Shown: positions 2,063 through 20,440 of the stretch, one piece after another
Numbering within the stretch: position 1 is the stretch's first letter
Layout of the letters: each line of letters starts with the position of its first letter
From: an uncultured Thermoleophilia bacterium
GTDB taxonomy: Bacteria; Actinomycetota; Thermoleophilia; UBA2241
Direction: 5' to 3'
Length of the DNA stretch: 64,000 bases
Assembly: GCA_963751215.1 (NCBI GenBank)
Contig: CAVVTV010000024.1
Location: forward strand, 1,052,178-1,116,177
Made by a program: the position numbers and the translations under genes
Notes under the pieces: model-generated
Seen by the model: only the letters and a program-made list of their open reading frames with translations
Database searches by the model: none
What the model was told of the DNA's origin: nothing

Positions 2063-2256
2063 GTGCCCGCGACTCGGGCAGCCCAGACGGGAGCACGGGC
2101 GTGGCGGGAATGCGTGAAGGGTACCGCAACGCGAATTCATCATGCCGCGGCCGCACAAAGCGCTTCCTGGCGCACCCGCAGCCGTCATACTTCTAACTGT
2201 TACGCTACTTAGCTCCTGATCACCCAGTGTTCCGAAGGATCCAGAAGGAGTACGCC

Positions 2257-2451: not shown

Positions 2452-2497
2452 TGTGACGTCGGCTCGCGCCGACCAGACCTTCACTGAGAGGAGAACG

Positions 2498-3730
2498 ATG
2501 CAGTATCGAAGCTTCGGCGGGATCGACTTTCGACCGTCGGTTTTGGGGTTCGGAGCCATGCGGCTGCCGCAACTGACGGATGGTACCGCGGCGACAGGCG
2601 ACGCCTACGGCCGTATCGACGTTGAGGCGGCCAACGCCATGTTGCGCCGCGCCGTGGAGGCCGGCGTCAACTACATCGACACGGCCTACCCTTACCACGA
2701 CGGCGCCAGCGAACGCTGGCTCGGCCAGGCGTTGCGCGTGGTGGCCCGGGACCTGTTCGGGCCGGGCGACGCCGGCTTCGCCGAGCTGCGCGCTCGGCTC
2801 AAAGTGGCTACCAAGCTGCCCATGTTCAGGGTCCAGTCGCACGACGACTGTGAGCGCTACTTCAGCGAACAGCTCGAGCGTCTGCAGCTCAACTCGGTCG
2901 ACTTCTACCTGTTGCACGGCCTGCGCGCCGGCAGTGTCGCTAAGCTACGCGAGTACGACGTGCTGGCCTGGGCTGAAGAGGCGCTGGCCGCCGGCCGCAT
3001 CGGCCACTTGGGGTTCTCGTTCCACGACCAGTACCCGATCTTCGAGGAGCTGGTCGACGCCACTGACCTCTGGGAGTTCTGCCAGATCCAGTACAACTTC
3101 ATGGACGAGGAGTTCCAAGCGGGCACGCGTGGGCTCGAGTATGCCGCGGCCAGGGGGCTCGGCGTGATTGTCATGGAGCCGCTACGCGGCGGCCGGCTGG
3201 CGCGGCGGCCGCCGGAGGCGGTCACCGCACTCTGGGCCGCCGCCAACGCGCGGCGCGAGGCCGTCGGCGCGGCGCCGCGCACGCCGGTCGACTGGGCGCT
3301 ACGCTGGGTCTGGGATCACCCCGAGGTCTCCTTCCTGCTCTCGGGCATGAGCAGCATGGAGCAGCTCGAGGAAGACCTCGCCTGCGCCGAGCATGCCGCA
3401 GTGGACGTGCTCAGCGCGGACGAGCTCGACCTGTATCGCCAGGTCCATGACGCATATCGGTCTTGCAGCCCGATCGACTGCACCAACTGCCGCTACTGTC
3501 TGCCCTGCCCCAGCGGCGTCGACATTCCCGAGGTGCTCGGGCTCTACAACGAGGCGATCATCTACAACGGCGGGCCGGCGGCGGCGCGCTTCGCCTACGG
3601 CTGGATCCCGGAGCCGCAGCGCGCCGAGGCCTGCACGCAGTGCCAGAACTGCGAGGAGCTCTGCCCGCAGCACATCGCCATCCCCGAATGGCTCGAGAAG
3701 ATCCGGGAGTTCCTGGCCGTCGGCGAGTAG
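2498..3730 (+). CDS. aldo/keto reductase fused to C-terminal 2x[4Fe-4S] ferredoxin-like domain
   Basis: ORF 2453..3730. AKR body (GFGAMRL, VNYIDTAYPY) plus C-terminal CTNCRYCLPCP and CTQCQNCEELCP cluster motifs. ATG at 2498 with GAGGAG RBS. 2-nt gap from the tautomerase gene. Confidence 0.85.
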   Translation: MQYRSFGGIDFRPSVLGFGAMRLPQLTDGTAATGDAYGRIDVEAANAMLRRAVEAGVNYIDTAYPYHDGASERWLGQALRVVARDLFGPGDAGFAELRARLKVATKLPMFRVQSHDDCERYFSEQLERLQLNSVDFYLLHGLRAGSVAKLREYDVLAWAEEALAAGRIGHLGFSFHDQYPIFEELVDATDLWEFCQIQYNFMDEEFQAGTRGLEYAAARGLGVIVMEPLRGGRLARRPPEAVTALWAAANARREAVGAAPRTPVDWALRWVWDHPEVSFLLSGMSSMEQLEEDLACAEHAAVDVLSADELDLYRQVHDAYRSCSPIDCTNCRYCLPCPSGVDIPEVLGLYNEAIIYNGGPAAARFAYGWIPEPQRAEACTQCQNCEELCPQHIAIPEWLEKIREFLAVGE

Positions 3731-3977
3731 AGCCGGCGTCGACCAGACAGTACTAGCCCCGACCGCTGAGGAGAACCATTCCTAATGGCCAGAAGCGCCA
3801 GGATCTTGCTGGCACAGGCGTCACGGCGCTCAGCCCCCTGGTTGGCCATGCTCGGAACAGGGGACGATACGTGCAAGCGACGCCGTCGGCCGCTCACGAC
3901 CAGCCTTCCGAATCGTCACTCCTCCCTCGACGGGCGAAGTGTCTTCTGGCTCGCAACAGCCATACGATAGGGACACC

Positions 3978-5108
3978 ATGACCGCTTGCCACAAGACATT
4001 ATCGACCGCCCGCGCAGCCCGGCGTCTGGTCTCGTCGCCGCGGCGCCGCTGGTGTGTGGGCGGCGTGGCCATCGCCTTGCTGGCTGCCCTCTTCGTCTCG
4101 CACACGGACCTGGCGCGTATGGGCCGATCGTTCCTGCGCGCCGACTGGCACTGGTTGGCCGTTGCGCTCGGCTTGATGTTTGTCTCGCTGCTGCTCAGGA
4201 GTGTGGCGCTGAAGGTGATCGTCGACGCCCTCGGCGCGCGGCGTGCCCGTCTGAGCGACACCTTCTCTGCGACCAGCATCGGCCTGCTGGCCAACACGGT
4301 GATCCCCGTCCGTGCTGGCACCGTGCTCGCACCGTACACTCTGTACGTGCTGCTGCGCCGCCGGGGGGCTGCACTGCCCTTTGCGACGGCGCTGGGCATG
4401 TCCTTGACCGAGCGGCTCTTTGCCACTGCGTCGTTTGTCGCCCTGTCGCTGCTGTTCGTCTCGGCGCTTTCCGTGCCGGGGTGGGCCGTCGAGGTGCTGA
4501 TCGCCAGCACGGCGTTCGCGGCCACATTCCTCGTCGGTGGGATCGCCCTCGAGCGTCGCCGGCGCAGGCTCGCCGCCGCTCCGGTGCTCGCGGCGCCGGG
4601 AACCGCCGCCGCGAGCGCGCGCCCTGGCGCGCTGCGACGCCACTGGCCAGAGCTCGTCGACAGCCAGCGCATCATGGGCAAGCCGTGGTCGGCGCTGCTT
4701 GTCGCTGCCATCCAGACGGTTGCCTGGTTGATCCAGCTCGCCGCTGCCTGGGCCGCGCTCCAGGCGTTCCACCTGGGCGGCGCCGGCCTGCGAGGCGCCG
4801 CCCTGGTGCTCGTGCTCACCAACCTGATCGGCCTGGTGTCGATCACCCCCGGCAACGTGGGCACGTTCCAGGCGGCCGCGCTGGCGGCGCTCGCAGTCTC
4901 GGGCGTGGCGGCCAGCCCGGCCGTCGCCTACGCACTGGGACTGCAGGGCCTGCAGCTGGCGGTTGCGACCGCTGCCGGGCTCGCGTCACTCAGCCTGCAG
5001 GACCTGACTCTCGCCGACCTTCGTGGCAAGAGCCGCCAAGCCGCGTCGCTGCTCTACCGCGGCGAACAGGCACCGCCCACGCCCGCCGAGGGGCCCGTCC
5101 GGCTCTGA
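3978..5108 (+). CDS. polytopic membrane protein, flippase-like / lysylphosphatidylglycerol-synthase TM-domain family (UPF0104-like)
   Basis: ORF 3939..5108. About 8 predicted hydrophobic helices. Family assignment is by overall resemblance only. Start could be GTG 3939 or ATG 3978. Confidence 0.55.
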   Translation: MTACHKTLSTARAARRLVSSPRRRWCVGGVAIALLAALFVSHTDLARMGRSFLRADWHWLAVALGLMFVSLLLRSVALKVIVDALGARRARLSDTFSATSIGLLANTVIPVRAGTVLAPYTLYVLLRRRGAALPFATALGMSLTERLFATASFVALSLLFVSALSVPGWAVEVLIASTAFAATFLVGGIALERRRRRLAAAPVLAAPGTAAASARPGALRRHWPELVDSQRIMGKPWSALLVAAIQTVAWLIQLAAAWAALQAFHLGGAGLRGAALVLVLTNLIGLVSITPGNVGTFQAAALAALAVSGVAASPAVAYALGLQGLQLAVATAAGLASLSLQDLTLADLRGKSRQAASLLYRGEQAPPTPAEGPVRL

Positions 5109-5194
5109 GGGCCTCAGGGGCGCGACACCCGAGCGCCTCGCACACGCCACCGTCTCGATCGCGCTCTGCGCCGCCATCTGGGAGACGATTTCCG

Positions 5195-5338
5195 CGTGTC
5201 GTCGTGTCGGGCGGCGAGAAACGCTTCGCACGCAAGCTCAAGGAGTGGGGGTTCGAACCCATCGAGTGCCCGTTCTGGGACTTCGAGACCATCGGCGGCG
5301 GCTTTCACTGCGCGAGCGTCGATGTGCGACGACGTGGC
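5195..5338 (+). pseudogene. C-terminal remnant of an amidinotransferase (glycine/inosamine amidinotransferase-like)
   Basis: Frame of ORF 3986..5413 reads RVVVSGGEKRFARKLKEWGFEPIECPFWDFETIGGGFHCASVDVRRRG, matching the conserved C-terminus (GGGFHC-x-T/S-x-DVRRRG, catalytic Cys) of AGAT/StrB1-type amidinotransferases. The upstream part of that frame is Arg-rich out-of-frame noise, so only about 48 aa survive. Confidence 0.5.
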
Positions 5339-5379
5339 GGGGGCTCCGGCGCGGCGGCATTGCCGACCGCGGCGGGCCC

Positions 5380-6840
5380 TCAAGGGGCGGCCCAGAGGTG
5401 CTGTACGGCGTAGGCGCGCCAAGGACGCCAGCGCGCGGAGAGCTCTTCGGCGGCTTTCGCAGTGTGAGGCACCCCGAGAGCCTCGAGCCCACGCAAGACA
5501 CCGTGGTCGGTGGAGGGAAAGGCATCGGTATCGGCGAGGGCCCGCATCGCGATGTACTCTGCCGTCCAAGGCCCTATGCCGGGGATTGCCAGCAGGCGGT
5601 GGCGCGTCTCGTCACGGTCGGCGCCGCCGTCGAGCTCTATCTGTCGCTCGGTGAGAGCTCGTGACAAGGAGCAGATCGCAACCGCGCGCGCGGCCGGCAG
5701 ATGCAGGAGTGCCGGGTCGGCGTCGGCCAGCGCTTCGGCCGTAGGAAAGGTGAAGGCAAGTGAGCCGAGCGGCTGCATCAGCGGCCCACCGAGAGCGGCG
5801 GCCAGCCGCCCGGCGGCGGTTCGAGCCGCAGCGATCGAAACCTGCTGCCCGAGCACGGCGCGAATAGCGATCTCGGCGCCGTCGGCGGCGCCGGGCACGC
5901 GCTTGCCGGGGGCGCGCCGCACGAGCGGCGCGAGCAGTGGGTCGCGGCCGAGAGCCGCGTCTGTCGTCTGCGGGTCGGCGTCGAGGTCGAGGAGGGCACG
6001 GCAGCGACTCACAGCCGCGGCCAAGTCGCGCAGATCGGCGAGCTGGAGTGTGCCGGCGACATGATCGTTGCGCGGCGTGAGCTGCACGATAGCGTTGCCG
6101 TGTCGTAGGCGCAGCGAGCGCCTGAACGTGCCGCCTGAGACCTCCTCCACGCCTTGCACGACGCGCGCGCCGAAGAAGCCGAGCAGGCCATCGGCATCGA
6201 GAGGCAGACGGTGCGGCAACCGCAAGACGATCGCGCCAAGGGGGACGGCCTGGTGCCGGCCGGCGGCGCGCAGCCTTCGGCGCCGCCGCCGCAGCGCTGT
6301 CGGCGTGAGGGCGAACACGTCGCGCACGGTGTCGTTGAACTGCCGCAGGCTAGCGAACCCCGCGGCGAAGGCGACCTCGGCGAAGCGCAGGTCCGTGGTC
6401 TCTATGAGCAGGCGCGCGGTCTGGGCGCGCTGGGCGCGGGCCAGACCGAGCGGCCCTGCACCGAGCTCATCATGCAATAAGCGGCGTAGCTGCCGCGGGC
6501 TGTAGGCCAGCCGCCGGGCCAGCCCCTCGACGCCCTCGCGATCGACGACGCCGTCGGCGATGAGCCGCATGGCGCGCCCCGCAGTATCGGCGCGCAGGTT
6601 CCACTGCGGCGATCCCGGCGAGGCGTCTGGGCGGCAGCGCAGGCAGGCTCGGTAGCCGACCGCCTGCGCCGCCGCGGCCGTGGGGTAGAACGTCACGTTC
6701 TCGCGCTTAGGCAGCCTCGACGGGCAGCTTGGGCGGCAGTAGATGCCGGTCGATGAGACGGCGACGTAGAACCACCCGTCAAAGCGCTGGTCACGGCTTT
6801 GCATGGCACGGTAGCAGGTGTCAGCTGCGGGCAGCATCAT
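5380..6840 (-). CDS. adaA-alkA: bifunctional Ada-N (methylphosphotriester-DNA methyltransferase, AraC-type regulator) / DNA-3-methyladenine glycosylase II (AlkA) fusion
   Basis: ORF 5380..7059 trimmed to ATG ATG at 6838-6840 (MMLPAAD). N-terminal FDGWFYVAVSSTGIYCRPSCPSR and CLRC Zn-binding Ada domain, AraC HTH, C-terminal HhH glycosylase (LLAIPGIGPWTAEYIAMRAL). Confidence 0.85.
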   Translation of the reverse strand: MMLPAADTCYRAMQSRDQRFDGWFYVAVSSTGIYCRPSCPSRLPKRENVTFYPTAAAAQAVGYRACLRCRPDASPGSPQWNLRADTAGRAMRLIADGVVDREGVEGLARRLAYSPRQLRRLLHDELGAGPLGLARAQRAQTARLLIETTDLRFAEVAFAAGFASLRQFNDTVRDVFALTPTALRRRRRRLRAAGRHQAVPLGAIVLRLPHRLPLDADGLLGFFGARVVQGVEEVSGGTFRRSLRLRHGNAIVQLTPRNDHVAGTLQLADLRDLAAAVSRCRALLDLDADPQTTDAALGRDPLLAPLVRRAPGKRVPGAADGAEIAIRAVLGQQVSIAAARTAAGRLAAALGGPLMQPLGSLAFTFPTAEALADADPALLHLPAARAVAICSLSRALTERQIELDGGADRDETRHRLLAIPGIGPWTAEYIAMRALADTDAFPSTDHGVLRGLEALGVPHTAKAAEELSARWRPWRAYAVQHLWAAP

Positions 6841-7659: not shown

Positions 7660-10600
7660 TCAGGCAAGCCGCAGACACACAACCTGAAGGTCGTCCTTAA
7701 GGCTGCCCGCGAACTCGAGGGCGGCGGTCCGCACGCCGTCGGCAAACTCCTGAGCGGAGAGCCCTCTCAGCCGGCAGGCCAGGTTGGCGAGTCGCTTCTC
7801 GCCATACTGCCGACTACCGCGGCGGGCCTCGGTGACGCCGTCAGTGTAGAACAACAGGTAATCATCCAGGGAGAGCCAGAGATGCTCTTCGCGGTAGTTG
7901 CTCGGGAAGCTGCCGAGGGGAGGCCCGAACATGACCCCGAGCTGCCGGCAGGCGGAGGGAGTCACATGGACTGGAGCGGGATGGCCGGCGCTGGCGTAGA
8001 GCATGTGCCCGGTACGGGGATCGAGCACCACCATGAAGGCGGTGACGTGCGGTTCCTCGGAGTCGTAGCGCAACAAGACGTCACTAGTGTTGGCGAGGAC
8101 GAAGGCCGGAGAGGGGTTAACGGCGGCAAACGCGCGCACCGTGCTGCGCACCGTCTCGGTGTGCCCCGCTGCCTTGATGCCCTTGCCGGCCACGTCGCCG
8201 ATCAGCACCGCAATTCTACCGTCTGCCAGCTCGAAGACCTCGCTGAAGTCGCCGCCGATGAGCTCCGGCTCATAGGCCGTCTGCGAAACGATGCCAAGCT
8301 CGATGCCGGGCACGCCCGGCAGCGGGTGCTTGAAGCTCTCCTGCAGGGTCGTGGCGATGCGCTGCTGCTCTTCGTAGAGCCGGGCATTCTCGAGAGCCGA
8401 CGACATGGCACTGGCCAGCTGGCCGGCAAACTCGACGGTGCGCCGCTCGAACCTCGTAGCGGCTGCATGGCGGTTGAAGAAGACGACGCCCAGGACCTCT
8501 TCTCTGACGATCAGTGGTATGCAGAGAACGGAGCGCACGCCGAAGCGGGCTTGCACATCGGGGAAGCAGCGCGGGTCGGCCTCACAGTCGTCGATAGCGA
8601 TCGGGCGCCGCTCCGTGACCGCAGTGACGACGAACGGCACCTCGTCGGTGCTAACGCTCTCGTGGATGACCCCTGGCACCTCCGGATAGCCGTACTCGGC
8701 GACCCAGTCGTCGCCGTGCTTGAGCGCGACCATGACGCTGTCCGCCTCGACGACGGCGACAGCGCGCTCGACAACGGTCTGCATGATGGCCTTCGTATCC
8801 AGGGTCGAGTTGATCAAGCGGTTGATCTCGTTGAGGGCCGTGGCGAGGCGCGCCGCTTCAGTCTCGCGTGCGAGTAGACGCGCGTTCTCAAGGGCCAGAG
8901 AGACGGTGGCCCCGAGCTTGCGCGCGAAGTCGATCTCGGCGTCCTCGAAGTTGCGTGGCGTCTTGCCGTAGAGCAGCAGGCAGCCCATCGCCGAGCCCCT
9001 GGCTACCAGCGGCACCGCAAGCACGGACCGCACGGCATGGATGTGGACGAAACCGACGTCAAGTGACGGATCGGCGGCCATGTCGGCAATCGCAAAGGGT
9101 TCCAGGATTGCCGCGGCGCGCGTGGCGTTGGGCGCCTCCAGATCGCTCAGCCGCAGGCCGACATCGCCAGGCGAGAAGCCTGTCTGGTAGCTTACTACCC
9201 AGCAGGACTCCTCACGCATCTCGATCGCGCCGGTATCGACGGATAGAGCCCGCACGCCTTCCTCAAGGCCCCGCTGCATGATCACGTCGAGGTCGAGCTT
9301 GGAGTGCACCAAGTTGTCGATCGCGTTGAGCGCCTCGGCGAGGTCGGCGCGCAGTCTCAGCCCCTCCTCCGCCCGCAGGCGGGCTGTGACGTCGTTGAAG
9401 ATGGTCGCGAACTTGCCCGGCGAGGGAGTGTAGGCGACGACCTCATAATGCCGATCGAGAGCAATGGAGTAGTGATCGAAGGTCGCCTGGCGGCCAGTCT
9501 GCGCCACGTTGCCGCAGACCTCGATCCAGAGAGGCTCGCGGCTGGGAAGCACCTCACGAGCGGTGTGCCCGATGAGGTCATTGGCGCGCAGGCCGATGAG
9601 CTCCTCGAAAGCCCTGTTGACCTCGAGGAAACGATAGTCGACCGGGCGACCCTCCGAGTCGCTCACGATCTCGTGGACGGCGAAGCCGCTGGTCATCTCC
9701 GTGAAGAGTCTCTGATACGCGCCACGGCTGGCGGCCAAGCCCGCATTGGACGATTCGATCTCAAGCGCCTGCGCCTGCAACTCCTCGCCCTGAGAACGCA
9801 GCTCCTCGCCCTGCGTACGCAGCTCCTCGAGCGCTTGCTGATGCTCGAACTCGGCTTGCTTGCGCTCCGTGACGTCCGAGAACAAGACCGTGACTCCATC
9901 TGGGCTTGGGTAGTCTCGTTCCTCAACCCAGAGACCTAGCGGTTCGTAGTAGGCCTCGAAGGCGGCGGTCCGGCCCTCCTCCATCGCCTTCCGCTTGCTC
10001 AGCTCGAAGATGCTGCCCGCCATGTCTGGGAAGAGCGCCAGGAAGCTGCGACCGAGCAGCTCCTCCTTGGTGCGCTGGAAGTAGGCGGCCGCCCTGTCGT
10101 TCACGAACGTGAGACGCCAGCGGCGATCGAGCGTGAAGAAGGCGTCGCTGATCGTGCCCAGGATAGTGGCCAGACGCATGTGCGAATTGGCCAACTCCCG
10201 TTCAACGTACTTGCGCTCGTTGATCTGACGGTAGTAGGCGCTGACGCCTGCCGCGGTCGGGTAGATGCGCACCTCATACCAGTCTCTGTCGACGACCGAG
10301 CGATGTTCGAAGATGGAGGGCTGGCCGAGCTCCATGGCATCCCGGTAGTGAGCCGCGAGCGGGGTGTCGACCAGCTCCGGGAAGACCTCCCACGGCGTGC
10401 GGCCGAGCAGCTCTGCAAGCGACGTACCGGTCATCTTGAGGGCGGCGCTGTTGGCGTAGACGTAGCGGTACTGCCAGTCGAGTGCCAGGAAGGCCTCGTC
10501 GATCTCCTCGAGCAGGGCCCTCATCCTGATCTCGCGATGGGTGCTCTGCGGCGTGCCGGCAACCACGGCGAGACCGCTCTCAAGTGACCCCACGGGGCAC

Positions 10601-11034
10601 CCTTCGACCGCGCGCTTGACCATCCTCACGGTGAGACCCCCGTCTGGAGGCGTGTGCAGGCGCAGATCGTCCATCATTCGCGACATCATGAAGAGGCCCC
10701 GTCCGCCCATACTCATAGGGTCGGGCGCCGCCTCGGGGTCAAAAGAGGCGACGTCAAAGCCCCGGCCTCTATCCTTCACCTCGACAATCAGAGTCGCGCC
10801 GTTGATCCCGAGCGAGACCCGCATCTCCTCATCGGACCCCGAGTGAGTGATGACGTTGGCGCAGGCCTCGTCAACGCAGAGAAGCACGTCATCGACGAGA
10901 CCGTCCCCGGCGCAGTGCATGCGCAGGTAGTCGCGAATGCGCTCCCGGGCGCGCAGCAGCAACGCCGGGTCGGGGGCCAGGCGAAAGCGCAGGGACGGTG
11001 GTGAGATCTCAGGGAGGTGACTTGGTGCTGACAC
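7660..11034 (-). CDS. multidomain signalling protein: N-terminal RsbW/SpoIIAB-like HATPase (anti-sigma Ser kinase) - PAS x3 with coiled-coil - GAF x2 - C-terminal PP2C (SpoIIE/RsbU-type) phosphatase
   Basis: 1124-aa ORF with GTG start. N-terminus LRMHCAGDGLVDDVLLCVDEACANVITHSG...GRGLFMMSRMMDDL...GGLTVRMVKRA (HATPase_c of anti-sigma kinases). PAS-like segments, EELRTQGEELRSQGEELQAQ coiled coil, two GAF domains. C-terminus GDFSEV...VLIGDVAGKGIKAAG...YASAGHPAP...YTDGVTEAR (PP2C). Confidence 0.85.
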   Translation of the reverse strand: MSAPSHLPEISPPSLRFRLAPDPALLLRARERIRDYLRMHCAGDGLVDDVLLCVDEACANVITHSGSDEEMRVSLGINGATLIVEVKDRGRGFDVASFDPEAAPDPMSMGGRGLFMMSRMMDDLRLHTPPDGGLTVRMVKRAVEGCPVGSLESGLAVVAGTPQSTHREIRMRALLEEIDEAFLALDWQYRYVYANSAALKMTGTSLAELLGRTPWEVFPELVDTPLAAHYRDAMELGQPSIFEHRSVVDRDWYEVRIYPTAAGVSAYYRQINERKYVERELANSHMRLATILGTISDAFFTLDRRWRLTFVNDRAAAYFQRTKEELLGRSFLALFPDMAGSIFELSKRKAMEEGRTAAFEAYYEPLGLWVEERDYPSPDGVTVLFSDVTERKQAEFEHQQALEELRTQGEELRSQGEELQAQALEIESSNAGLAASRGAYQRLFTEMTSGFAVHEIVSDSEGRPVDYRFLEVNRAFEELIGLRANDLIGHTAREVLPSREPLWIEVCGNVAQTGRQATFDHYSIALDRHYEVVAYTPSPGKFATIFNDVTARLRAEEGLRLRADLAEALNAIDNLVHSKLDLDVIMQRGLEEGVRALSVDTGAIEMREESCWVVSYQTGFSPGDVGLRLSDLEAPNATRAAAILEPFAIADMAADPSLDVGFVHIHAVRSVLAVPLVARGSAMGCLLLYGKTPRNFEDAEIDFARKLGATVSLALENARLLARETEAARLATALNEINRLINSTLDTKAIMQTVVERAVAVVEADSVMVALKHGDDWVAEYGYPEVPGVIHESVSTDEVPFVVTAVTERRPIAIDDCEADPRCFPDVQARFGVRSVLCIPLIVREEVLGVVFFNRHAAATRFERRTVEFAGQLASAMSSALENARLYEEQQRIATTLQESFKHPLPGVPGIELGIVSQTAYEPELIGGDFSEVFELADGRIAVLIGDVAGKGIKAAGHTETVRSTVRAFAAVNPSPAFVLANTSDVLLRYDSEEPHVTAFMVVLDPRTGHMLYASAGHPAPVHVTPSACRQLGVMFGPPLGSFPSNYREEHLWLSLDDYLLFYTDGVTEARRGSRQYGEKRLANLACRLRGLSAQEFADGVRTAALEFAGSLKDDLQVVCLRLA

Positions 11035-11083
11035 ATGACCTCGCAGGCAAGATGACCAGAGCGCGAGCCCCGCGGGAACTGTT

Positions 11084-14000
11084 CTACCCAGCAGCCTGCT
11101 GCCTCAGCCTCTCGTTGTCGACGGCCAGGGCAACCAAGGCGGCGATCTTGGCGGCGAAGTCGATTTGCGCCTCGGAGAAGGCCATCGAGATAACCTTCCA
11201 ATTGAACAGCAACACGCCGACCACGCTGCCGGCAACCACGAGTGGGGCAGCGAGCACCGAGCTCAGCCCCAGTGTCTTCAGCACCTTCGCAGAGACGCCC
11301 TCTGGGCTACTGCCCAGGCTTATCGCCACCGGCAAGCGCGTCTCCGCGGCCAGCACCGCATGCGGAAACTCGGCATCGGAGAAACGAGCTCCTGCGGCGC
11401 TGGGCGGCAGGTTGTGGCTGTGGCGCGCGACCCAAACCGCATCCTCGCGAACGGCGACCGTGGCGGAGTCGGCGCCCAGCGTGGCGCTGGCCTCCTGCAG
11501 CAGCCCGGGCAGAGCGGCAGCCGGCGTCTGGTTTGCGGCAAAGCCGGCGAGAACGCGGTTCACACTCTCGTTCATCGTCAAGGAGATCTGGATCTGCTCC
11601 AGGCTGCGATGCAGCTCGTCGATGTCGAGGAAGGTGAGCACAGCGCCGTCAACGCGCCTCTCTGCCGTCTGGAAGGGCCGCACCCGCAGGGTGTACCAGC
11701 GCCCGGCGGCGTCTCGCACCTCGCGCACCACCGTCGTCGCGTTCTCGATCACCTCGCCGAGAAGCTCTCGCAGGTCGGGGACGACCAGGCCGCTCGAGAT
11801 GTCGGTGACGGGCCGCCCCACGTCTGTGGCGATCAGGTTGAGCACCGCCTCGGTACCCGGCGTGAAGCGCCGAATGGTGAGATCGCGGCCGACGATCACT
11901 GTGGGTACACTCATGGCGCGCAGCAGGTTGCTGACGTCGTCGTAGGCGCCCGCCAGCTGCTGGTTGCGGCTCACGAGCTCCTCGTTGACGGTGCGCAGCT
12001 CCTCGTTTGTTGACTGCAGCTCCTCCTTGGCGGTCTCGAGCTCTTCGTTGATGCTCTGCAACTCCTCGTTTGTAGACTGGATCTCCTCGTTGGCGGCGCG
12101 CAGCTCCTCGTTACTCTTCTCTCGCTGCTGAATGACCGACTGCAGGTAGACCTGGGTAGAGGCACGCTCGCGTCTGAGGGCGAGGATCTCCTGCCTTTCC
12201 GCACCGCTTGGCGGGCTCGTCTCCGGCGAGGCTTCGATCGCCTCCCGGTGAGGCGTCATGAAGAGCACCAGCACGTGCTCTTGATCGGGCGGTCCGGCGA
12301 GCGGCACGGCCTCCAGGTCGACCATCTGACCGGCCTCGGTACCGTGCACGGCGACGCCGGCTTCGCTCTGCGCGCTGGCCTCATGGCGCACGCGCTCGAC
12401 GAGCTCGCGCAGGGGTGCCGAGAGGCCTTCGCGAGCCATGGCGAGCAGGTTGAGCGTAGCGCGCCCAGCGGCATGCTGCAGGTAGGGGTCCGTGTCGCCG
12501 AAGAACTGCACGATCTCAAGGCGGTGATCGACCACTACGGCCGGTGGCGTGAAGTCGGTGAGCAGGGTGTGGGCGGCCGCCTCGAGCGGGTCGGGGTATG
12601 CCACGGAACCCGGCTCGCCGATCGGCTCCACTCGGGGCTCACCGCGATGCTCGAGGATCGCCGGGAAGGGGTAGGCGAACTCGATCGGCAGGCGCGGTGG
12701 CACGTCGTTCTTGACGAAGATCTTGTTGCGATTGTCGATCACGGTGAAGAGATCTCCGGCGGCGCCGAGCGATTCTGAGAGCCCCAGCATGAGGAAGGCG
12801 CCGGGCAGCAGGGCGTAGTGCAACATCGGTAGCACGCGCTCCTGTAACACGCGGCCGAGGTAGATGAGCACGTTGCGACAGACGATCAGGTCGAGCCGTG
12901 AAAAGGGCGGGTCGCGAGTGACGTCGTGGCGGGCGAAGACGCACATGTCGCGAATAGCTCGGTCGATCTGGTAAGCACCGTCGGTGCGCGTCAAGAAGCG
13001 CTCGCGCAGGTCGGCGGGTATGGACGCCACGCGGCTCTCCGGGTACTCTCCCGCCCGCGCCAGCGCCAGCTCACGTTCGTTGATGTCGGTAGCAAGGATC
13101 TTGATGGGGAACCGGTTTCCGGCTCCCTGCATGGCCTCGGCCAGCACCATGGCGAGGCTGTAGGGCTCCTCGCCGGCGGCGCAGCCGGGCACCCAAACGC
13201 GCACCTCGCGGCCGGGATCGCGACCGGCAAGAAGAGCAGGCAAGACGTGCTCTTTGAGACCCTCGTAGGTCTCTGGCTCGCGGAAGAAGTCGGTCACCAT
13301 CACCAGAATGTCGTGATAGAGCTCGTCGAGCTCACCGCGGTCGACGGCGATGAGATTGGCATACGCATGGCGCGAGTCGAGGCGCTGCAGGACCATACGC
13401 CGTTCGATGCGCCGGCTGACCGTGCCGCTCTTGTAGCCCGCGAAGTCGACGCCAAAAGCCTCGCGCAGGGCGATGAGGATGCGCGTCGTGTCGTCGTCCG
13501 TGCGGGCCGTCGGGGCTGATTTCTTGCCAGCGGACTCGCTCACATAGGGGTGTCCGCCGAGGCGCACGAGCTCCCCGGCGATCTGCCCGGGCGCCAGCAC
13601 CTTGTCGGCGACACGGGCGTGGATCGCGCTCGAGGGCATGCCGTCGAAGCGTGCGGTAGCCGGGTCCTGGGCGAAGGCGATGCCGCCTGCGCCTTTGACG
13701 GCAGCGAGGCCCAGCGTGCCGTCGGTGCCCACGCCCGAAAGCACTACGCCGATCGCCCTTTCCCCGAGGTCTTGCGCGAGCGATTTGAGGAACTGATCGA
13801 TGACCAGATGCCGGGCGCTGGGTTCAAGGCGCTCCAGCAGATCGAGGTGGCCATGGTATATCACCATGTCGACGCCGGGCGGGATGACGTAGACATGATC
13901 GGGTTGCACGGCCATGCGGTTCTCGACCTTGACGACCGGCATGGCCGTGTGCCGAGCGAGAAGCTCGGGCAGGATGCTGCTGTGCTGCGGCGCCAGATGC

Positions 14001-14143
14001 TGCACCAGGACGAGCGCCACCCCGGGGCTCTGCGGTAGCTTGTCGAGCAGGGCGGAGACCGCCTCGAGGCCACCCGCGGAGGCGCCTATACCAACGACGG
14101 GGAAGCGCATCGTTACGCCGCGCTTCTGTTTCGCTGTTGCCAT
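11084..14143 (-). CDS. CheB methylesterase - CheR methyltransferase - coiled-coil - PAS - GAF fusion protein
   Basis: ORF 11084..14167. ATG at 14143 (MATAKQ), alternative 14110. VVGIGASAGGLEA (CheB-type), VWVPGCAAGEEPYSLAMVL with MVTDFFREPETYE (CheR SAM methyltransferase), heptad NEELQSTNEELRTVNEEL block, PAS, C-terminal GAF. 50-bp gap to 7660..11034 on the same strand. Confidence 0.8.
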   Translation of the reverse strand: MATAKQKRGVTMRFPVVGIGASAGGLEAVSALLDKLPQSPGVALVLVQHLAPQHSSILPELLARHTAMPVVKVENRMAVQPDHVYVIPPGVDMVIYHGHLDLLERLEPSARHLVIDQFLKSLAQDLGERAIGVVLSGVGTDGTLGLAAVKGAGGIAFAQDPATARFDGMPSSAIHARVADKVLAPGQIAGELVRLGGHPYVSESAGKKSAPTARTDDDTTRILIALREAFGVDFAGYKSGTVSRRIERRMVLQRLDSRHAYANLIAVDRGELDELYHDILVMVTDFFREPETYEGLKEHVLPALLAGRDPGREVRVWVPGCAAGEEPYSLAMVLAEAMQGAGNRFPIKILATDINERELALARAGEYPESRVASIPADLRERFLTRTDGAYQIDRAIRDMCVFARHDVTRDPPFSRLDLIVCRNVLIYLGRVLQERVLPMLHYALLPGAFLMLGLSESLGAAGDLFTVIDNRNKIFVKNDVPPRLPIEFAYPFPAILEHRGEPRVEPIGEPGSVAYPDPLEAAAHTLLTDFTPPAVVVDHRLEIVQFFGDTDPYLQHAAGRATLNLLAMAREGLSAPLRELVERVRHEASAQSEAGVAVHGTEAGQMVDLEAVPLAGPPDQEHVLVLFMTPHREAIEASPETSPPSGAERQEILALRRERASTQVYLQSVIQQREKSNEELRAANEEIQSTNEELQSINEELETAKEELQSTNEELRTVNEELVSRNQQLAGAYDDVSNLLRAMSVPTVIVGRDLTIRRFTPGTEAVLNLIATDVGRPVTDISSGLVVPDLRELLGEVIENATTVVREVRDAAGRWYTLRVRPFQTAERRVDGAVLTFLDIDELHRSLEQIQISLTMNESVNRVLAGFAANQTPAAALPGLLQEASATLGADSATVAVREDAVWVARHSHNLPPSAAGARFSDAEFPHAVLAAETRLPVAISLGSSPEGVSAKVLKTLGLSSVLAAPLVVAGSVVGVLLFNWKVISMAFSEAQIDFAAKIAALVALAVDNERLRQQAAG

Positions 14144-14261
14144 GAGCCTACCTTCGGGGTCGATCACATTCTAGCCCCTCGAGGGTCGGCACGCGGCCGG
14201 CGTCGTTATAGAGGTCTGCCGGCAGCATCTCCTCAACTGATGCCAACGCCTTTGACTCAGC

Positions 14262-14320
14262 CGCCTGGCGGGTACATACATCTTCGCGGTGCCACGAGGT
14301 GGGGCCGAGTGTTCGTAGCG
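14262..14320. promoter_or_regulatory. conserved ~55-nt non-coding motif, copy 1 (ACGAGGTGGGGCCGAGTGTTCGTAGCGCGACGCAGCGCACGCCTGGTACG)
   Basis: About 85% identical to 42243..42300. Lies about 120-180 nt upstream of the CheBR-PAS-GAF start on the minus strand. Coordinates are approximate (+/-2). Confidence 0.5.
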
Positions 14321-14581
14321 CGACGCAGCGCACGCCTGGTACGCAGAAGCAGTCGACCCGGTGCAGCGAGCCCTCGTTGCCAGCTCAGCCCCCCTCGGCG
14401 CGCCTCTTCTTGGCCCCCCATACCCTCTGCTGGACGAGGCCTCGCCTACTGCTGCTCTTACTCGTCGTGCGAGAAGATGGGACAACCTTCACCAGCGACG
14501 CTCCCATGCCACGGAAAGCCACGATTGCCGCCCTCACCTGGTGGGAAGACATCGGCAGTCGCATCACCCGAGGAGGACGTC

Positions 14582-14794
14582 ATGGGCGCATCGCACACCG
14601 AAGAGCATCGCCTGGAGGCGCGCTGGGGCACGAGAAGCTGCGCGCTCTGCGGGGCCACGATTATCCTCGGCCAGCCCTACACGAAGACGCACATCAAGGG
14701 TCGCCGAGTATCGCTCTGTTACGCCTGCGCGACCGAGCCGCGGTCGCTCCTGCGCTCGGCAGAGCCAGGCCAGCGGCTCGCGCGAGCGGCGTAA
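14582..14794 (+). CDS. small zinc-ribbon protein (CxxC...CxxC), hypothetical
   Basis: Frame of ORF 14240..14794 trimmed to the ATG with GAGGAGG RBS. 70 aa, SCALCG...CYAC. Followed directly by hairpins. Confidence 0.45.
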   Translation: MGASHTEEHRLEARWGTRSCALCGATIILGQPYTKTHIKGRRVSLCYACATEPRSLLRSAEPGQRLARAA

Positions 14795-14812
14795 GCGAAA
14801 AGCATGAGCTAG

Positions 14813-14908
14813 TGCGGACCCCCCCTTGTCCGCACATCCGCTCAGCGGTTCCCCCACCGCTGAGCTCCAGGCAAGGGCCTGTTGCCGGTTGCCATGGCGA
14901 CAGGCCCT
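14813..14908. terminator. cluster of three GC-rich hairpins (8-bp, 9-bp and 9-bp stems) between convergent small ORFs
   Basis: GTGCGGAC-cccccct-GTCCGCAC; GCTCAGCGG-ttccccca-CCGCTGAGC; AGGGCCTGT-17 nt-ACAGGCCCT, each read directly. Positions +/-2. Confidence 0.6.
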
Positions 14909-14958
14909 TCGCATGTGCTCCACCGGCATGGCAAGGGCGCGGTTCCGGTGAGGTCGGT

Positions 14959-15135
14959 TTAGGCCTTCAGCGTGAGCGGCTGTCCGCAGCAGGTCACGGG
15001 CTCCGTGCAGGAACAGGTGCCGGAACCGCCGTCGTAGTCTTCGCCGGCGTCGCAGGAACGCATCACCTTGAGCTCCAGGCCGCAGGTTCCGCAGACGTAG
15101 GTCTCGCCCGGCTTCATCTCGTGACAGATCGCCAT
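14959..15135 (-). CDS. 58-aa Cys-rich small protein (8 Cys), hypothetical metal-binding
   Basis: Not in ORF track (<60 aa). MAICHEMKPGETYVCGTCGLELKVMRSCDAGEDYDGGSGTCSCTEPVTCCGQPLTLKA. ATG preceded by GGGAGAAGG RBS. Frame verified against neighbouring track ORF 14564..15187. Confidence 0.45.
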   Translation of the reverse strand: MAICHEMKPGETYVCGTCGLELKVMRSCDAGEDYDGGSGTCSCTEPVTCCGQPLTLKA

Positions 15136-15404
15136 GCCTTCTCCCTTTCGACGGCTGCCGGCGAGGCGCGCGGGCAGCTTCCCACAACGCCTACAATGCC
15201 CACGCAGGCGGGCCGTGAGGCGACGCTGCCGTCTCTCCCAGGACCGGCCGCCTCTGACTTGAGATGGCAGGTCGTTCTGGCCTTTGATTCAAGGCCCCAC
15301 CGGCGGCGGTCGCCCGTGCAACGGAACCCTCGCACTTGAAGACCCGCGACAACGGGCACAGTCAGCCGTGAAGGCCGCTGGTAACTGTGAATCGGGGAGT
15401 CGTC

Positions 15405-16061
15405 ATGGGTACAGGGCTTGCTCGCCTCACCGAAGAGGAGACCGACGAAGAGGTGCTAACGCCCCTTGCCGCTGTGCCGACCAGCACGGCTCCCACCGAG
15501 GCGCAGGACATCGCCGGCGACCAAGCCAACGAGACAGAGCCGACCGTGGGACCTCGGCAAGGCTTGGACCTGGCAGATCACCCGGCGGCGCCCCCGCTCG
15601 CAGCGCCGCCGGCCGCCGGCCTCGCGCTCTCGGGCCAGCGTCGCCGGCGCGCCGTCGAGCTCTGCTGCGTGCTAGCCCTGCTCGGCAGCGTAGCGACCGC
15701 GGGACTGCTCGCCTGGAGTGCTGTCGAGGCAGTGTCGAGCCCCACGCACTTCCGCACCGTGCTGACCATGAGCTCGAGTGACCGGCGGGGCGCCGGCGGT
15801 AGCATGGTCAGCTCCCCCTTCTTGACCTACAACGATGTCCGCGTGCTGCTCTCTACCCCACACAGCGGCTCGCCGGCTCACCTTAGCGGGCTCATCGTCG
15901 CGCTCAATCAGGCCAACGCCTCGAGGCCGCCGACCAGCAAGACCATAACGCTGAGCACCACGGCCGCGGCGACCGTGACCGGGCTTGGGGGCCTCTATGA
16001 GCTGCGCATCACTACGCCCGGTCGGCGACGCTGGTCGCTCGCCATTCAGACGCCGTCGTGA
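15405..16061 (+). CDS. hypothetical membrane-anchored protein (acidic N-terminus, one TM, Ser/Thr-rich C-terminus)
   Basis: ORF 15387..16061. ATG 15405 with GGGGAG RBS. Hydrophobic segment LCCVLALLGSVATAGLLAW. Confidence 0.4.
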   Translation: MGTGLARLTEEETDEEVLTPLAAVPTSTAPTEAQDIAGDQANETEPTVGPRQGLDLADHPAAPPLAAPPAAGLALSGQRRRRAVELCCVLALLGSVATAGLLAWSAVEAVSSPTHFRTVLTMSSSDRRGAGGSMVSSPFLTYNDVRVLLSTPHSGSPAHLSGLIVALNQANASRPPTSKTITLSTTAAATVTGLGGLYELRITTPGRRRWSLAIQTPS

Positions 16062-16239: not shown

Positions 16240-17004
16240 CTAATCGTGAACGGGAAACTGCGAGACCGATACTTCCCTGGCGCCCGACGGCAGCGTGAAC
16301 CAGCACGTCGCTTGAGCAGCGGCCGGTAGCCAACCGTAGTCGATGGTCACCAGGCCGAGACCGTCGGGACGTTCCAGCATACGGATCGGCAGATACGTCT
16401 GAGGATCGACGTAGTAGCGCCGGTGCATACTGGGCTCCGAGTCAGCCAGCACCAGCACCTGCTGGCCGCGCAGGACGGTCTGGCCCACCCGGGTGATGTC
16501 GGCTGCCTGTAGCGGCGCCTGCAGCGCCGCCAGGGGCGCGGGCACGCCAGTGGCCGGAGCAGTGCTCGGCAGCGCCTGGCCGGGATGAGCGGCCTGCCAG
16601 GCTGCCTGCTTCTGCGCCAGGCCCTTGGCGAGAGCAGCGTGTGAGGTGGCGCCCAGCCGTTCGAGGAGGTCCCAGATGCAAGCCTCCTCCTCGGGAAGTT
16701 GCTCCCAGGCCGGGCTCCCCTCAACGGCCGAGGCTCGCACTGCCTCGCGCACCTCGCGTTGCCGCCGCCGCCGCTGACTGCGCCGCATATTGAGGTGAAC
16801 GTTGCGTGAGGCCGCGAGGAGCCAAGGGAGCGGCGCCTCGCCGGGAATGCCTTCGAGGCGGCGCCAGGCGACGAGGAAAGTCTCTGCGACGATGTCGTCA
16901 GCGAGCGCCGGCTCTCGCCGCCAGGCGAACGCACGCACGGCCCCGTAGTGGGCGTTGTAGAGCGCATTGAACCCGCTCTCTCGCCGCTTTCGATCGAGCG
17001 TCAT
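16240..17004 (-). CDS. ECF-type sigma-70 region-2 domain protein with a non-sigma C-terminal domain (no recognisable region 4)
   Basis: ATG 17004 with GGGGAGG RBS. FNALYNAHYGAVRAFAWRR...DDIVAETFLVAWRRL...PWLLAASRNVHLNMRRSQRRRR is a canonical ECF region 2. The remaining about 150 aa have no HTH or region-4 signature. Confidence 0.55.
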   Translation of the reverse strand: MTLDRKRRESGFNALYNAHYGAVRAFAWRREPALADDIVAETFLVAWRRLEGIPGEAPLPWLLAASRNVHLNMRRSQRRRRQREVREAVRASAVEGSPAWEQLPEEEACIWDLLERLGATSHAALAKGLAQKQAAWQAAHPGQALPSTAPATGVPAPLAALQAPLQAADITRVGQTVLRGQQVLVLADSEPSMHRRYYVDPQTYLPIRMLERPDGLGLVTIDYGWLPAAAQATCWFTLPSGAREVSVSQFPVHD

Positions 17005-17669: not shown

Positions 17670-18782
17670 TCAGCCGCCCACACGCTGCAGGAAACGCTCG
17701 CGCCGCTCCCTGGGCCAACGCACGCAGTACGCGGGCTTCTGGGCGACGATGCGCTTGCTACACAAGCTGCACCCGGGCGCACACACGGTGATGGGCTCGC
17801 TGATCTGCCCGCGCGCCTTCTTGGGCCACTGCGGGTCGGCAAAGACGATGCGCCCCAGCCCGACCAGGTCGGCAGCGCCATCGCTCAGGACGGTCCGCGC
17901 CGTCTCCGGCCGTTGGATGCGCCCGGCAGCGATGACGGGCATCGCCGGGAGCCCCTGTTTGATGGCGGCCGCAAACGGCACCATGAAAGCCTCACGACGG
18001 TCGTCCTTGGCGTACTCGGACGAGGAGTCGTAGCACCCGGCCATGACGGAGAGGTAGGTCGCACCGGCGCGCGCCAACTCCAGGGCGAACAGGCGCGTCT
18101 CATCCAGCGTGATGCCACCCGGGACGTACTCATCCGCGAGGAAGCGATACCCTACCGGGAACCCGTCGCCCACCGCCGAACGTACGGCTGCGAACACTTC
18201 GAGTGGGAAGCGCATCCGACCCGCGAGCTCGCCGCCGTAGCCGTCGTGGCGCAGATTGGTGCGCGCCGAGAGGAATTGCGTCAGGAGGTAGCCCATGCCG
18301 CCGTGCAACTCCACCGCGTCGAATCCCGCCTCTTGCGCCCGCCTCGCCGCGGCCGCGAAGGCGCGGACGACCCGGTCGATGTCGGCCTGGTCCATGACCT
18401 TCGGTGTAGCTCCCCAGGCCTCCACGGCCGAGGGCGCGATGCGGTCGGCGCGCTTTGCGTACCTTCCGGCGTGATGGATCTGCAGCACAGCCGGCACGCC
18501 GCGCGCCTTGATGGCCTTCGCCAAACGCGCCAACCCCGGAACGAAGCGATCCTCGGAGACGAGGAGGGTGCGCGGGTTGGTGAGGCCGCGCGGCTCGACG
18601 GTGGCGTTCTCTACAACCACCATCCCCGGCCCCGAGTCAGCCATCTCGGAGTAGTAGTCGAGCACGAGACTGTTCACCTCGTGGTCGGGGTCCGGATACG
18701 CGAGGTACATGGGCAGGCAGACGATGCGATTCGCGAGGGTCAGGGTCCCGAGACGGAACGGCGAAAATAGAGGGTCCGGCAT
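17670..18782 (-). CDS. Old Yellow Enzyme family NADH:flavin oxidoreductase with C-terminal Cys cluster (CAPGCSLC...YC)
   Basis: ORF 17670..18986 trimmed to ATG 18782 (AAGGAGTG RBS). FSPFRLGTLTLANRIV, LQIHHAGRY, VELHGGMGYLLTQFLS are OYE/2,4-dienoyl-CoA-reductase N-domain motifs. Confidence 0.8.
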   Translation of the reverse strand: MPDPLFSPFRLGTLTLANRIVCLPMYLAYPDPDHEVNSLVLDYYSEMADSGPGMVVVENATVEPRGLTNPRTLLVSEDRFVPGLARLAKAIKARGVPAVLQIHHAGRYAKRADRIAPSAVEAWGATPKVMDQADIDRVVRAFAAAARRAQEAGFDAVELHGGMGYLLTQFLSARTNLRHDGYGGELAGRMRFPLEVFAAVRSAVGDGFPVGYRFLADEYVPGGITLDETRLFALELARAGATYLSVMAGCYDSSSEYAKDDRREAFMVPFAAAIKQGLPAMPVIAAGRIQRPETARTVLSDGAADLVGLGRIVFADPQWPKKARGQISEPITVCAPGCSLCSKRIVAQKPAYCVRWPRERRERFLQRVGG

Positions 18783-19261
18783 GAACAGTTCACTCCTTGC
18801 CCAAACGACGACGGCGTGGTCACCGCCGACTGATTGTGACCGTATCGTGGTTTGTACTTCCGGCATGATGGTTGCACCATTTCTTGCTCGGGTACAGCCG
18901 GCGCTCCCCACCTGGGCGACCGCCGACGACGTCACCGCTTGAGTCGCCGCCAACGCTCTCATGGGCGTGCACTGGGCTTTGGTCAATCACGTCCGCCGGC
19001 GGGTGCTGGCCGGCACACCTGACCCAAGCGTCGCCCGCGAGGTCCGCTCGCGTGCGCAGCGCGCTCATACTGATCGAGCGAGGGCTTGGCGACTATGCAC
19101 TCAAAGCACGCTGAGCAGGCACTCGCCGTCGCACGCGCTTGAGCCGGAGCCAACGCCTCTCGCGTGATGCTAACCGTACGCGGGCACAATCCGACGATCG
19201 ATGAACCAGGATCGTCCCACAGAGCACGCTGGAAGCAGTAACGGCTGAGCGGCGGGTGCCG

Positions 19262-20440
19262 ATGAGCGAGGCACACGGCGAGCGGGTCTCACTCGCCACG
19301 ATCGCGCGTGAATGGCTGCGCATCGGCGTCACCGGCTTCGGCGGCCCGCCGGCGCATATTGCTCTCCTGAGCAGCCTCGCCGTGAGGCGGCGCGGCTGGC
19401 TTACCGAACGCGAGTTCGAGGAGGGCGTCGCCGCCACCAACCTGCTGCCGGGACCGGCCTCGACGCAGCTCGCGATCTTCATCGCCTGGCGCCTGCGGGG
19501 CGCAGTTGGTGGCATCCTCGCCGGGGTCTGCTTCATCGTCCCCGGCCTCGCCCTCATCCTGGCCCTCGCGACGCTCTTCCTTGCCGCGCACCCGCCGCTC
19601 TGGACCGAAGGAGCCGCTGCAGGAGCCGGTGCCGCCGTGCCGGCCGTCGCCGTGCAGGCGGCCCTGGGCCTGGCGCCGGCGAGCTGGCGGCGGGCGGGCG
19701 CTTCCCGGGCCGCGCAGACGCGCTGGCTGCTCTACCTGCTCGCCGGCGTCGCGGCGTCTGCGGGCCTTGGACCGTACCTGGTCCTCGTGCTGTTCGCCTG
19801 CGGCGCAGTCGAGGTCGCGACCCTGCGCCCGGGCCGCTGTGCTGTGGGCGGACGGACGAGGGTCCTCCTCGCCGTGCCGCTCGCCCTCACCGGCAGCGCC
19901 GTCGGTGGCCTCGCGGCCCTCGTCTGGGTGGCCTTCAAGGTGGGGGCGCTCTCCTACGGCGGCGGCTTTGTGATCATCCCCCTGATGCAGCACGATGCGG
20001 TCAGCACCTACCACTGGATGAGCGCCGCTCAGTTCCTCAACGCCGTCGCCCTGGGCCAGATTACGCCGGGCCCTGTGGTGCAGACGGTCGCGGTGGTCGG
20101 TTACGCCGCTGCCGGGCTCGCCGGCGGCCTGCTCGCGGCGCTCGTCGCCTTCGCCCCATCGTTCCTCTTCGTCATCGTCGGCGGGCCCCGCTTCGGGCGC
20201 CTGCGCACCAGCACCCGGGCGCAAGCCTTCCTGACCGGCGCCGGCGCGGCGGCCATCGGCGCGATCATGGGGGCTGCCATCCCCCTGGCGCTGGCGCTCT
20301 CCCACCTCTGGCAGCTTGGCGTGCTCGCGCTCGCGGCGGCCTGGCTGCTACGACTGCGCCGGGGCGTCGTCCCGGCGCTCCTCGGGGCGGCGCTGCTCGG
20401 CGTCGTCGCGGCACTCTTGGGTGCACCAATTGGCCACTGA
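19262..20440 (+). CDS. chrA: chromate ion transporter ChrA (two CHR domains)
   Basis: ORF 19256..20440. ATG 19262. GVTGFGGPPAHIAL and GALSYGGGFVIIPLM CHR-domain motifs, polytopic. Confidence 0.85.
   Translation: MSEAHGERVSLATIAREWLRIGVTGFGGPPAHIALLSSLAVRRRGWLTEREFEEGVAATNLLPGPASTQLAIFIAWRLRGAVGGILAGVCFIVPGLALILALATLFLAAHPPLWTEGAAAGAGAAVPAVAVQAALGLAPASWRRAGASRAAQTRWLLYLLAGVAASAGLGPYLVLVLFACGAVEVATLRPGRCAVGGRTRVLLAVPLALTGSAVGGLAALVWVAFKVGALSYGGGFVIIPLMQHDAVSTYHWMSAAQFLNAVALGQITPGPVVQTVAVVGYAAAGLAGGLLAALVAFAPSFLFVIVGGPRFGRLRTSTRAQAFLTGAGAAAIGAIMGAAIPLALALSHLWQLGVLALAAAWLLRLRRGVVPALLGAALLGVVAALLGAPIGH

Follow-up and report, generated by a model that had tools for sequence, protein, structure and literature searches.

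A desulforedoxin-like eight-cysteine small protein encoded opposite a probable zinc-finger gene across a hairpin cluster

Introduction

Two very short Cys-rich open reading frames (ORFs), one of 70 aa on the plus strand and the other of 58 aa on the minus strand, converge on a 164-nt spacer (14795-14958) with a cluster of hairpins in the window, the whole 64-kb stretch of DNA analyzed here. The source genome has a GC content of 67%, and its nearest relatives are soil/peat metagenome contigs and "uncultured Actinomycetes" MAGs. This arrangement raises the question of whether both ORFs are genuine genes, what their products would do, and whether the ORFs, the hairpins, and the chromate transporter and OYE genes nearby belong together. 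The explanation that we favor on balance, with a little more than even confidence in the picture as a whole, is that the locus holds two independent small genes, one for a desulforedoxin (Dx)-type mini-protein with two metals and the other for a C4 zinc finger, and that the hairpins lie at the 3' ends of their transcripts.

The 58-aa gene and its conservation

As summarized in Table 1, reading of the sequence confirmed both ORFs as the first-pass annotation had described them, namely, a 70-aa ORF with two CxxC motifs and a 58-aa ORF with eight Cys residues, each with a good ribosome binding site; both ORFs begin with an ATG codon. The GC3 value of the 58-aa ORF (0.864) was comparable to those of the neighboring genes. 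An AAGGAG-type Shine-Dalgarno (SD) sequence, placed at the same distance from the start codon, was also present in the homolog loci L003, L004, L007, L008, and L009, and the SD was the sole common feature detected on comparison of the upstream regions of the homologs.

Table 1. Features of the convergent locus and of related loci (window positions unless a locus is named)
Feature	Position	Strand	Remarks
SD of the 70-aa ORF, GAGGAGGA	14570-14577	+	four bases upstream of the ATG; identical in the sister-strain contig L017
70-aa C4 zinc-finger ORF, C20xxC23...C46xxC49 (CxxC-x22-CxxC)	14582-14794	+	ATG start, read in the sequence
Hairpin 1, GTGCGGAC/GTCCGCAC	14812-14835		perfect 8-bp stem, 8-nt loop; unchanged in L017
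Hairpin 2, GCTCAGCGGT/ACCGCTGAGC	14840-14865		perfect 10-bp stem, 6-nt loop
Hairpin 3, AGGGCCTGTTGCC/GGCGACAGGCCCT	14874-14886/14896-14908		13-bp core; flanking pairs extend it to 14871-14912
Gene for the 58-aa, 8-Cys desulforedoxin-like protein	14959-15135	-	ATG start, read in the sequence
SD of the 58-aa ORF, GGGAGAAGG	15137-15145	-	reverse complement of these positions; just upstream of the ATG, read in the sequence
OYE gene (Oxidored_FMN)	17670-18986	-	Pfam scan
Chromate transporter gene (ChrA)	19256-20440	+	Pfam scan
108-aa C4 zinc-finger family	L003 15397-15756	-	also L011-L014; Actinomycetes MAGs, peat metagenomes

Conservation in other genomes, by which the ORF had been proposed to stand or fall, was borne out. 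A search of 5.8 billion proteins retrieved 7 close homologs with 67-91% identity, and a profile of these close homologs reached approximately 133 clusters (50% identity) at E<=1e-3 among 1.84 billion representatives. The gene is under strong purifying selection, with dN/dS values of 0.07 against L008 and 0.20 against L007, its two nearest non-strain relatives, at dS of 0.54-0.60. Taken with its relationship to Dx described below, we are highly confident that the 58-aa gene is real and Dx-related.

A second profile search gathered 92 proteins, all of which were unnamed or "hypothetical," and neither Pfam nor NCBIfam contains a dedicated model for the family. The few named sources were Anaerolineae, Methanomassiliicoccus, Methanosarcina, Deltaproteobacteria, Peptostreptococcaceae, Tissierellia, and Actinomycetota, and a genome scan added two "uncultured Actinomycetes" MAGs, Salidesulfovibrio brasiliensis, and one Pirellulales MAG. 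Thus defined, the family comprises members of 50-65 aa carried by anaerobic bacteria, methanogens, and soil Actinomycetes. The family HMM detected no second copy in the window, and a literature search on desulforedoxin-like small proteins returned nothing relevant.

Desulforedoxin-type core of the 58-aa protein

Dx, the textbook example of a minimal iron-sulfur protein, has been described from a few sulfate reducers. It is a homodimer with Fe held in a distorted tetrahedral thiolate site, and the adjacent-Cys pair is the hallmark of this iron site. In an alignment of 60 diverse members of the 58-aa family, C15, C18, C49, and C50 were invariant, and these residues aligned to C9, C12, C28, and C29 of Dx. 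The best PDB match of the family profile was desulforedoxin itself (1CFW/1DXG, E 7e-4); the alignment took in Dx residues 2-36 and was broken by one 13-residue gap, located at the site of the family's insertion. The family HMM scored 23.1 bits against Dx, a score that none of 500 composition-preserving shuffles attained. In addition, the Pfam model Desulfoferrod_N (PF06397) was matched at E<=0.01 by 16 of the 60 members (best E 2.6e-6), while the window protein scored 9.7 bits, under the gathering cut-off of 23. Based on the invariant Cys residues, the PDB profile match, the HMM score relative to the shuffles, and the Desulfoferrod_N matches, the core of the 58-aa protein is predicted to be a Dx-type CxxC...CC tetrathiolate site, a prediction in which sequence, profile, and model agree. 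The AlphaFold model adopted the Dx fold, with 35 of 36 residues superposing on desulforedoxin at 1.4 Å; its N-terminal segment had a pLDDT of 84, and disorder was limited to an acidic loop at residues 33-37.

The resemblance extends to ligands and flanking residues. The CxxC...CC ligand set, including the unusual CC pair, is common to Dx from Desulfovibrio gigas (1DXG/1CFW), the N-terminal domain of desulfoferrodoxin (PF06397), and the 58-aa family, and Dx and the family share the pattern G-[DE]-x-Y-x-C-x-x-C-G...V...CCG-x-x-[LM]-x-x-K. There are also differences. Dx is a compact domain of ~36 residues with a single metal site, a description that the 58-aa protein does not fit, since family members carry a 13-25-residue insertion between the two halves of the fold, an 11-residue N-terminal extension, and four more conserved Cys residues that would imply a second site. 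The family also extends beyond the sulfate reducers, unlike Dx, into Actinomycetes, Anaerolineae, Pirellulales, Clostridia, and methanogens. With a predicted Dx-type Cys4 site and four further conserved Cys residues, the product of the 58-aa gene very probably binds metal, and on this point the earlier interpretation, which holds up in part overall, was supported.

Additional cysteine residues and a possible second site

Among the eight Cys residues of the 58-aa protein, C4, C28, and C43 were conserved in at least 90% of the 60 aligned members. Across 190 family sequences, a Cys lay exactly 11 residues before the CxxC in 152 and exactly 10 residues after it in 174, and the commonest pattern was one N-terminal Cys plus three in the loop, giving a total of 8. 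Because the extra Cys residues occupy fixed or near-fixed positions, a second Cys4 site composed of C4, C28, C41, and C43 is predicted, their clustering being deduced from conservation and not from geometry; we regard the existence of this site as slightly better than an even prospect. We hence describe the 58-aa protein as a Dx-type domain carrying an insertion and, in all likelihood short of certainty, another Cys4 site, from an unnamed, widespread family.

A sister subfamily (P0196-P0218; 50-77 aa) with the pattern PKKGDRFRCQKCGMEIQVTADCKC..HH.RFECCGQPL retains the Dx-type CxxC...CC and, 10 residues past the CxxC, the Cys. It is without the N-terminal Cys; its shorter loop contains instead a conserved pair of His residues, so that its second site may be a Cys/His one. 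One of its members carries the UniRef name "Desulfoferrodoxin N-terminal domain-containing protein."

Proposed function of the 58-aa protein

In the mechanism that we propose, C15-x2-C18 and C49-C50 would form a Dx-type tetrathiolate site I, a one-electron Fe(Cys)4 redox center as in Dx and rubredoxin. The loop of 13-25 residues inserted between the Dx halves would supply the Cys 10 residues after the CxxC and two more, and these, together with the Cys 11 residues before the CxxC, would provide four extra ligands for a Cys4 site II, occupied either by Zn in a structural role or by another Fe. The protein would then be a free-standing small electron carrier or redox protein with two metals. This redox reading is favored because the CC pair is retained and many of the hosts are anaerobes; as a choice over a metal buffer it is tentative, and we place it slightly short of even.

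The principal competitor is a metallothionein-like buffer or chaperone, in which the eight thiolates would together coordinate a cluster of Cu(I), Zn, or Cd ions. The precedent is MymT, a metallothionein from pathogenic mycobacteria that binds several Cu(I) ions and is copper-inducible. Eight Cys in 58 residues would suit such a thiolate cluster: MymT is of similar length (53 vs 58 aa), has as many Cys residues and an equal Cys density (8 of 58 here), and comes from an actinobacterial host, and the host here is apparently an actinomycete. The MymT sequence used for comparison was validated by its score of 99.6 bits against the NCBIfam MymT model (NF052418). The 58-aa family HMM scored a marginal 8.4 bits against MymT in collinear register, a value equaled or exceeded by 3 of 500 composition-preserving shuffles, and hhalign returned a local 20-residue match with 50% identity at a probability of 52%. 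Against this, NF052418 did not match the 58-aa protein even at E<=10, and the two proteins differ in their motifs, in that MymT has neither the CC pair nor the CxxC knuckle, whereas the 58-aa protein is devoid of CxHxxCxC, the His-containing motif of MymT. A defined mononuclear site is instead indicated by the constancy of the CxxC...CC spacing and by a Dx-like fold modeled with confidence. Furthermore, methanogens and sulfate reducers commonly carry the family, and no metal-resistance genes lie near its members. Its sole metal-related neighborhood among the contexts examined was L009, where, at 2255-6608, a 51-aa family member lies downstream of lgt with the genes for a ZnuA-type binding protein, an ABC ATPase, and a Fur-family regulator within ~1-4 kb; this zinc-related context would agree with metal handling, yet it is limited to one lineage. 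On reading the 120 nt upstream of the 58-aa gene, no CsoR/RicR-type palindrome (TACCC...GGGTA) was seen. Altogether, we consider the metallothionein-like buffer rather improbable.

Beyond the preferred redox-carrier reading, the family may constitute a phylogenetically wide, undescribed class of two-center Dx-like mini-metalloproteins, with a fold perhaps common with or ancestral to that of MymT, a proposal that we consider unlikely on present evidence. If true, it would link a redox-protein fold to the bacterial metallothioneins. The family would offer bioinorganic chemists a natural two-site scaffold, and it could point to a general small protein for redox chemistry or metal handling that genome annotation has ignored.

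Genomic context of the 58-aa family

The neighbors of the 58-aa family genes differed by lineage across about ten independent genomic contexts. They were an S41 peptidase gene in L003 and L004, YjbQ and CobM in Salidesulfovibrio, an aldehyde dehydrogenase in L007, a DinB-type polymerase in L008, Lgt in L009 (ZnuA and the Fur-family gene being further off), a pyridine-nucleotide oxidoreductase and methyltransferases in L018, RadA in the Methanomassiliicoccus loci, and PFOR on a Peptostreptococcaceae contig. Since the neighbors differ in every lineage, the 58-aa protein appears to stand alone and probably acts by itself, not within an operon-encoded system.

This diversity also bears on the suggestion that one or both small ORFs encode precursors of ribosomally made and modified peptides (RiPPs), for which small size and Cys richness were the sole points in favor. 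No radical-SAM, YcaO, lanthipeptide, or other maturase gene was present among the Pfam-scanned ORFs located between 5.4 and 24.9 kb of the window, and no modifying enzyme within about 10 kb; the family had no conserved neighbor in any of the about ten contexts; and the 58-aa protein was conserved over its full length as a folded domain, with no pattern of leader plus variable core. With neither maturases nor a conserved partner gene and with the whole folded length conserved, the peptide-precursor idea was rejected, and we give it hardly any weight.

The 70-aa ORF

The 70-aa ORF presented a less uniform picture. Its GC3 was 0.817, compared with 0.605 in the same frame directly upstream. A search of 5.8 billion proteins returned identical copies only, and neither Pfam nor NCBIfam gave a match above threshold. 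A cluster look-up identified a sister-strain variant of the protein (P0219) with 93% identity, in which all four Cys residues are kept. Comparison with L017, the contig of that strain, revealed 5 non-synonymous and 2 synonymous changes (dN/dS ~0.9).

The sole relatives found beyond strain level were distant ones, those of a 108-aa protein family, first met by chance in the Actinomycetes MAG locus L003, 7.5 kb from the 58-aa family copy of that locus, and with four relatives in peat metagenomes. An HMM of this family matched, among the 1128 six-frame ORFs of the window, the 70-aa frame only (E 5e-7; the next best was above E 1). The family has the pattern MG..HGHSF.DRFR...ALERRWGVATCARCGRAIMLGEP...LCVECL...SDLERAA and no Pfam match.

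An AF2 model of the 70-aa protein, built from two near-identical sequences, was treble-clef-like with a C4 site and had a pLDDT of ~80-85 over residues 21-50. In this model, the predicted strand-helix order, with the second Cys pair at the helix start, resembles that of the L24e/TRASH treble clefs, with which the ORF also has in common a CxxCG...G...C spacing of ~22 residues. The second pair, however, is CxxC in the 70-aa ORF and CxxxC in L24e and TRASH, and no sequence-level match was obtained in Pfam, NCBIfam, or the PDB, where the best profile hit had an E of 0.04 and fell on unrelated proteins.

One may therefore ask whether the 70-aa ORF is a gene at all, or whether the locus consists of one small gene and a structured 3' region or non-coding RNA. 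The finding of identical copies only in 5.8 billion proteins, the dN/dS of ~0.9 against the sister strain, and the lack of a family-library match at threshold would fit the non-coding alternative. The coding signs tell against it, namely, the GC3 value, the strong SD at the correct spacing, the four Cys residues kept in P0219, the selection of this very frame by the 108-aa family HMM, and the pLDDT of ~80-85 in a near-single-sequence model; in addition, Rfam found nothing at the ORF. We thus hold the non-coding alternative to be unlikely and the 70-aa ORF to be a real gene with good probability. The earlier expectation of conservation was borne out in part: the ORF is kept in L017 and has the 108-aa relatives, whereas no close homolog was found outside its own lineage. 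It is probably a fast-evolving, lineage-restricted zinc-finger gene, whose product would be a C4 zinc finger of treble-clef type and possibly a binder of nucleic acid or protein. For annotation, the lesson is that both of these sub-75-aa ORFs look real.

Hairpin cluster between the convergent genes

Three consecutive perfect hairpins forming a terminator cluster had been claimed for the spacer. All three hairpins were indeed present between the convergent genes; the third contains one T:G position in its core and is therefore perfect only as plus strand RNA. The plus strand RNA of the spacer folded at -88.2 kcal/mol compared with -67.9 +/- 4.3 kcal/mol for dinucleotide shuffles (z -4.7; 0 of 200 as good), and the minus strand RNA gave a z of -2.6. 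The whole 64 kb contains 22 perfect hairpins of at least 8 bp, two of them adjacent in the spacer, and no further copy of any of the three stems is present in it. Rfam gave no match, whether for the whole window at the gathering threshold or for 14100-15500 at E<=1.

The sister-strain contig L017 is collinear with the window at ~95% identity and contains both ORFs and all three stems. In hairpin 2 of L017, the closing A is replaced by G, which gives a U:G wobble on the plus strand RNA, and the sole change in hairpin 3 is in the loop. The flanks and a weaker fourth stem (14921-14950), which is not kept in L017, carry substitutions and an indel, and the three main stems show no disruptive change. 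This conservation fits selection at the RNA level, with a slight preference for the plus strand transcript, although the divergence of L017 is too low for it to be decisive.

Whether the cluster terminates transcription is a separate matter. The hairpins are real and fold better than shuffles, and they resemble intrinsic (bidirectional) terminators in having GC-rich perfect stems directly after both stop codons and RNAs stable on both strands. They differ from canonical ones in that there are three tandem stems instead of one and no U-tract follows any stem directly on its 3' side on either strand; a CUUUUC run on the minus strand, the closest that is rich in U, begins 9 nt past hairpin 1. A promoter/terminator consensus scan returned nothing, with 0 terminator-like sites in 14000-15800. 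Mycobacterial RNA polymerase is reported to require a U-tract at intrinsic terminators (PMC3993855). Because the stems have no U-tracts and such a requirement is reported, the word "terminator" can be applied to the cluster only as an interpretation.

In L008, the region downstream of the 58-aa homolog was without such a cluster, and in L007 one canonical hairpin with a T-tail takes its place; for this reason, the cluster seems to go with this particular convergent arrangement. Such confinement to one strain-level lineage, as well as the missing U-tracts, would be compatible with a remnant of a repeat or mobile element, or with an array of protein-binding palindromes, having nothing to do with transcript ends. 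The single occurrence of the stems in 64 kb and their position exactly between two convergent stop codons speak against this origin, as do the retention of the stems while the loops vary and the preservation of plus strand wobble pairing by the changes in L017, and we judge it improbable. A role of the hairpins at the 3' ends of transcripts is fairly likely by comparison. As 3'-end structures on both transcripts, they would block antisense read-through and/or protect the RNAs from exonucleases, which we regard as the most parsimonious roles. The two genes themselves would be independent monocistronic units transcribed toward each other.

Neighboring genes and the question of a joint system

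The convergent pairing of the two ORFs was limited to the strain-level relatives L001, L002, and L017; in L003 a distance of 7.5 kb separates the two families, which were adjacent in no other locus. A functional pairing was accordingly not upheld, and there is no evidence of the pair as a unit: both small genes look real, and we regard them as functionally unlinked. The chromate transporter and OYE genes do exist nearby, 2.5-5.3 kb away from the 58-aa gene; two genes, for a 224-aa membrane protein and a sigma factor, intervene. Owing to these intervening genes and to the different neighborhood of the 58-aa family in every lineage, the link to them is unsupported. The pairing of the small ORFs, the hairpins, and the nearby chromate transporter and OYE genes thus do not make up a joint system.

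The products of the Pfam-scanned ORFs located between 5.4 and 24.9 kb of the window were Ada/AlkA, a SpoIIE phosphatase, CheB/CheR, a sigma factor, OYE, ChrA, a TPR protein, and an InlB-repeat protein. Two very large signaling genes in tandem (7660-14167, minus strand) adjoin the small ORFs. One encodes a 1124-aa protein with HATPase_c_2, PAS, GAF, and SpoIIE (PP2C) domains and the other a 1027-aa CheB-CheR fusion with PAS_10 and GAF, the L017 counterpart of which was called as two genes. The non-coding stretch 14168-14505, between the start of the CheB/CheR gene and the conserved upstream region of the 70-aa ORF, diverges from L017 far more than the flanking genes, and conservation picks up again ~65 nt upstream of the 70-aa start codon.

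The octamer GTGGGAAG occurs upstream of both small ORFs (14542-14549, plus strand; 15182-15189, minus strand), ~35-55 nt from the start codons, and GGGAATAG was found at a similar upstream position of the 58-aa homologs in L007 and L008. The sharing of one 8-mer by two regions of roughly 100 nt is compatible with chance.

Approximately 770 nt of L017 (6086-6856), spanning the junction between the genes for a 192-aa ECF sigma factor (regions 2 and 4) and a 320-aa downstream product, are missing from the window, where the junction falls at 16653/16654 inside the ORF 16240-17004 (minus strand; 254 aa). Since this ORF has Sigma70_r2 as its only sigma region and the ~770 nt are missing relative to L017, it looks like the product of a deletion that fused the N-terminus of the sigma factor to the C-terminus of the neighboring gene.
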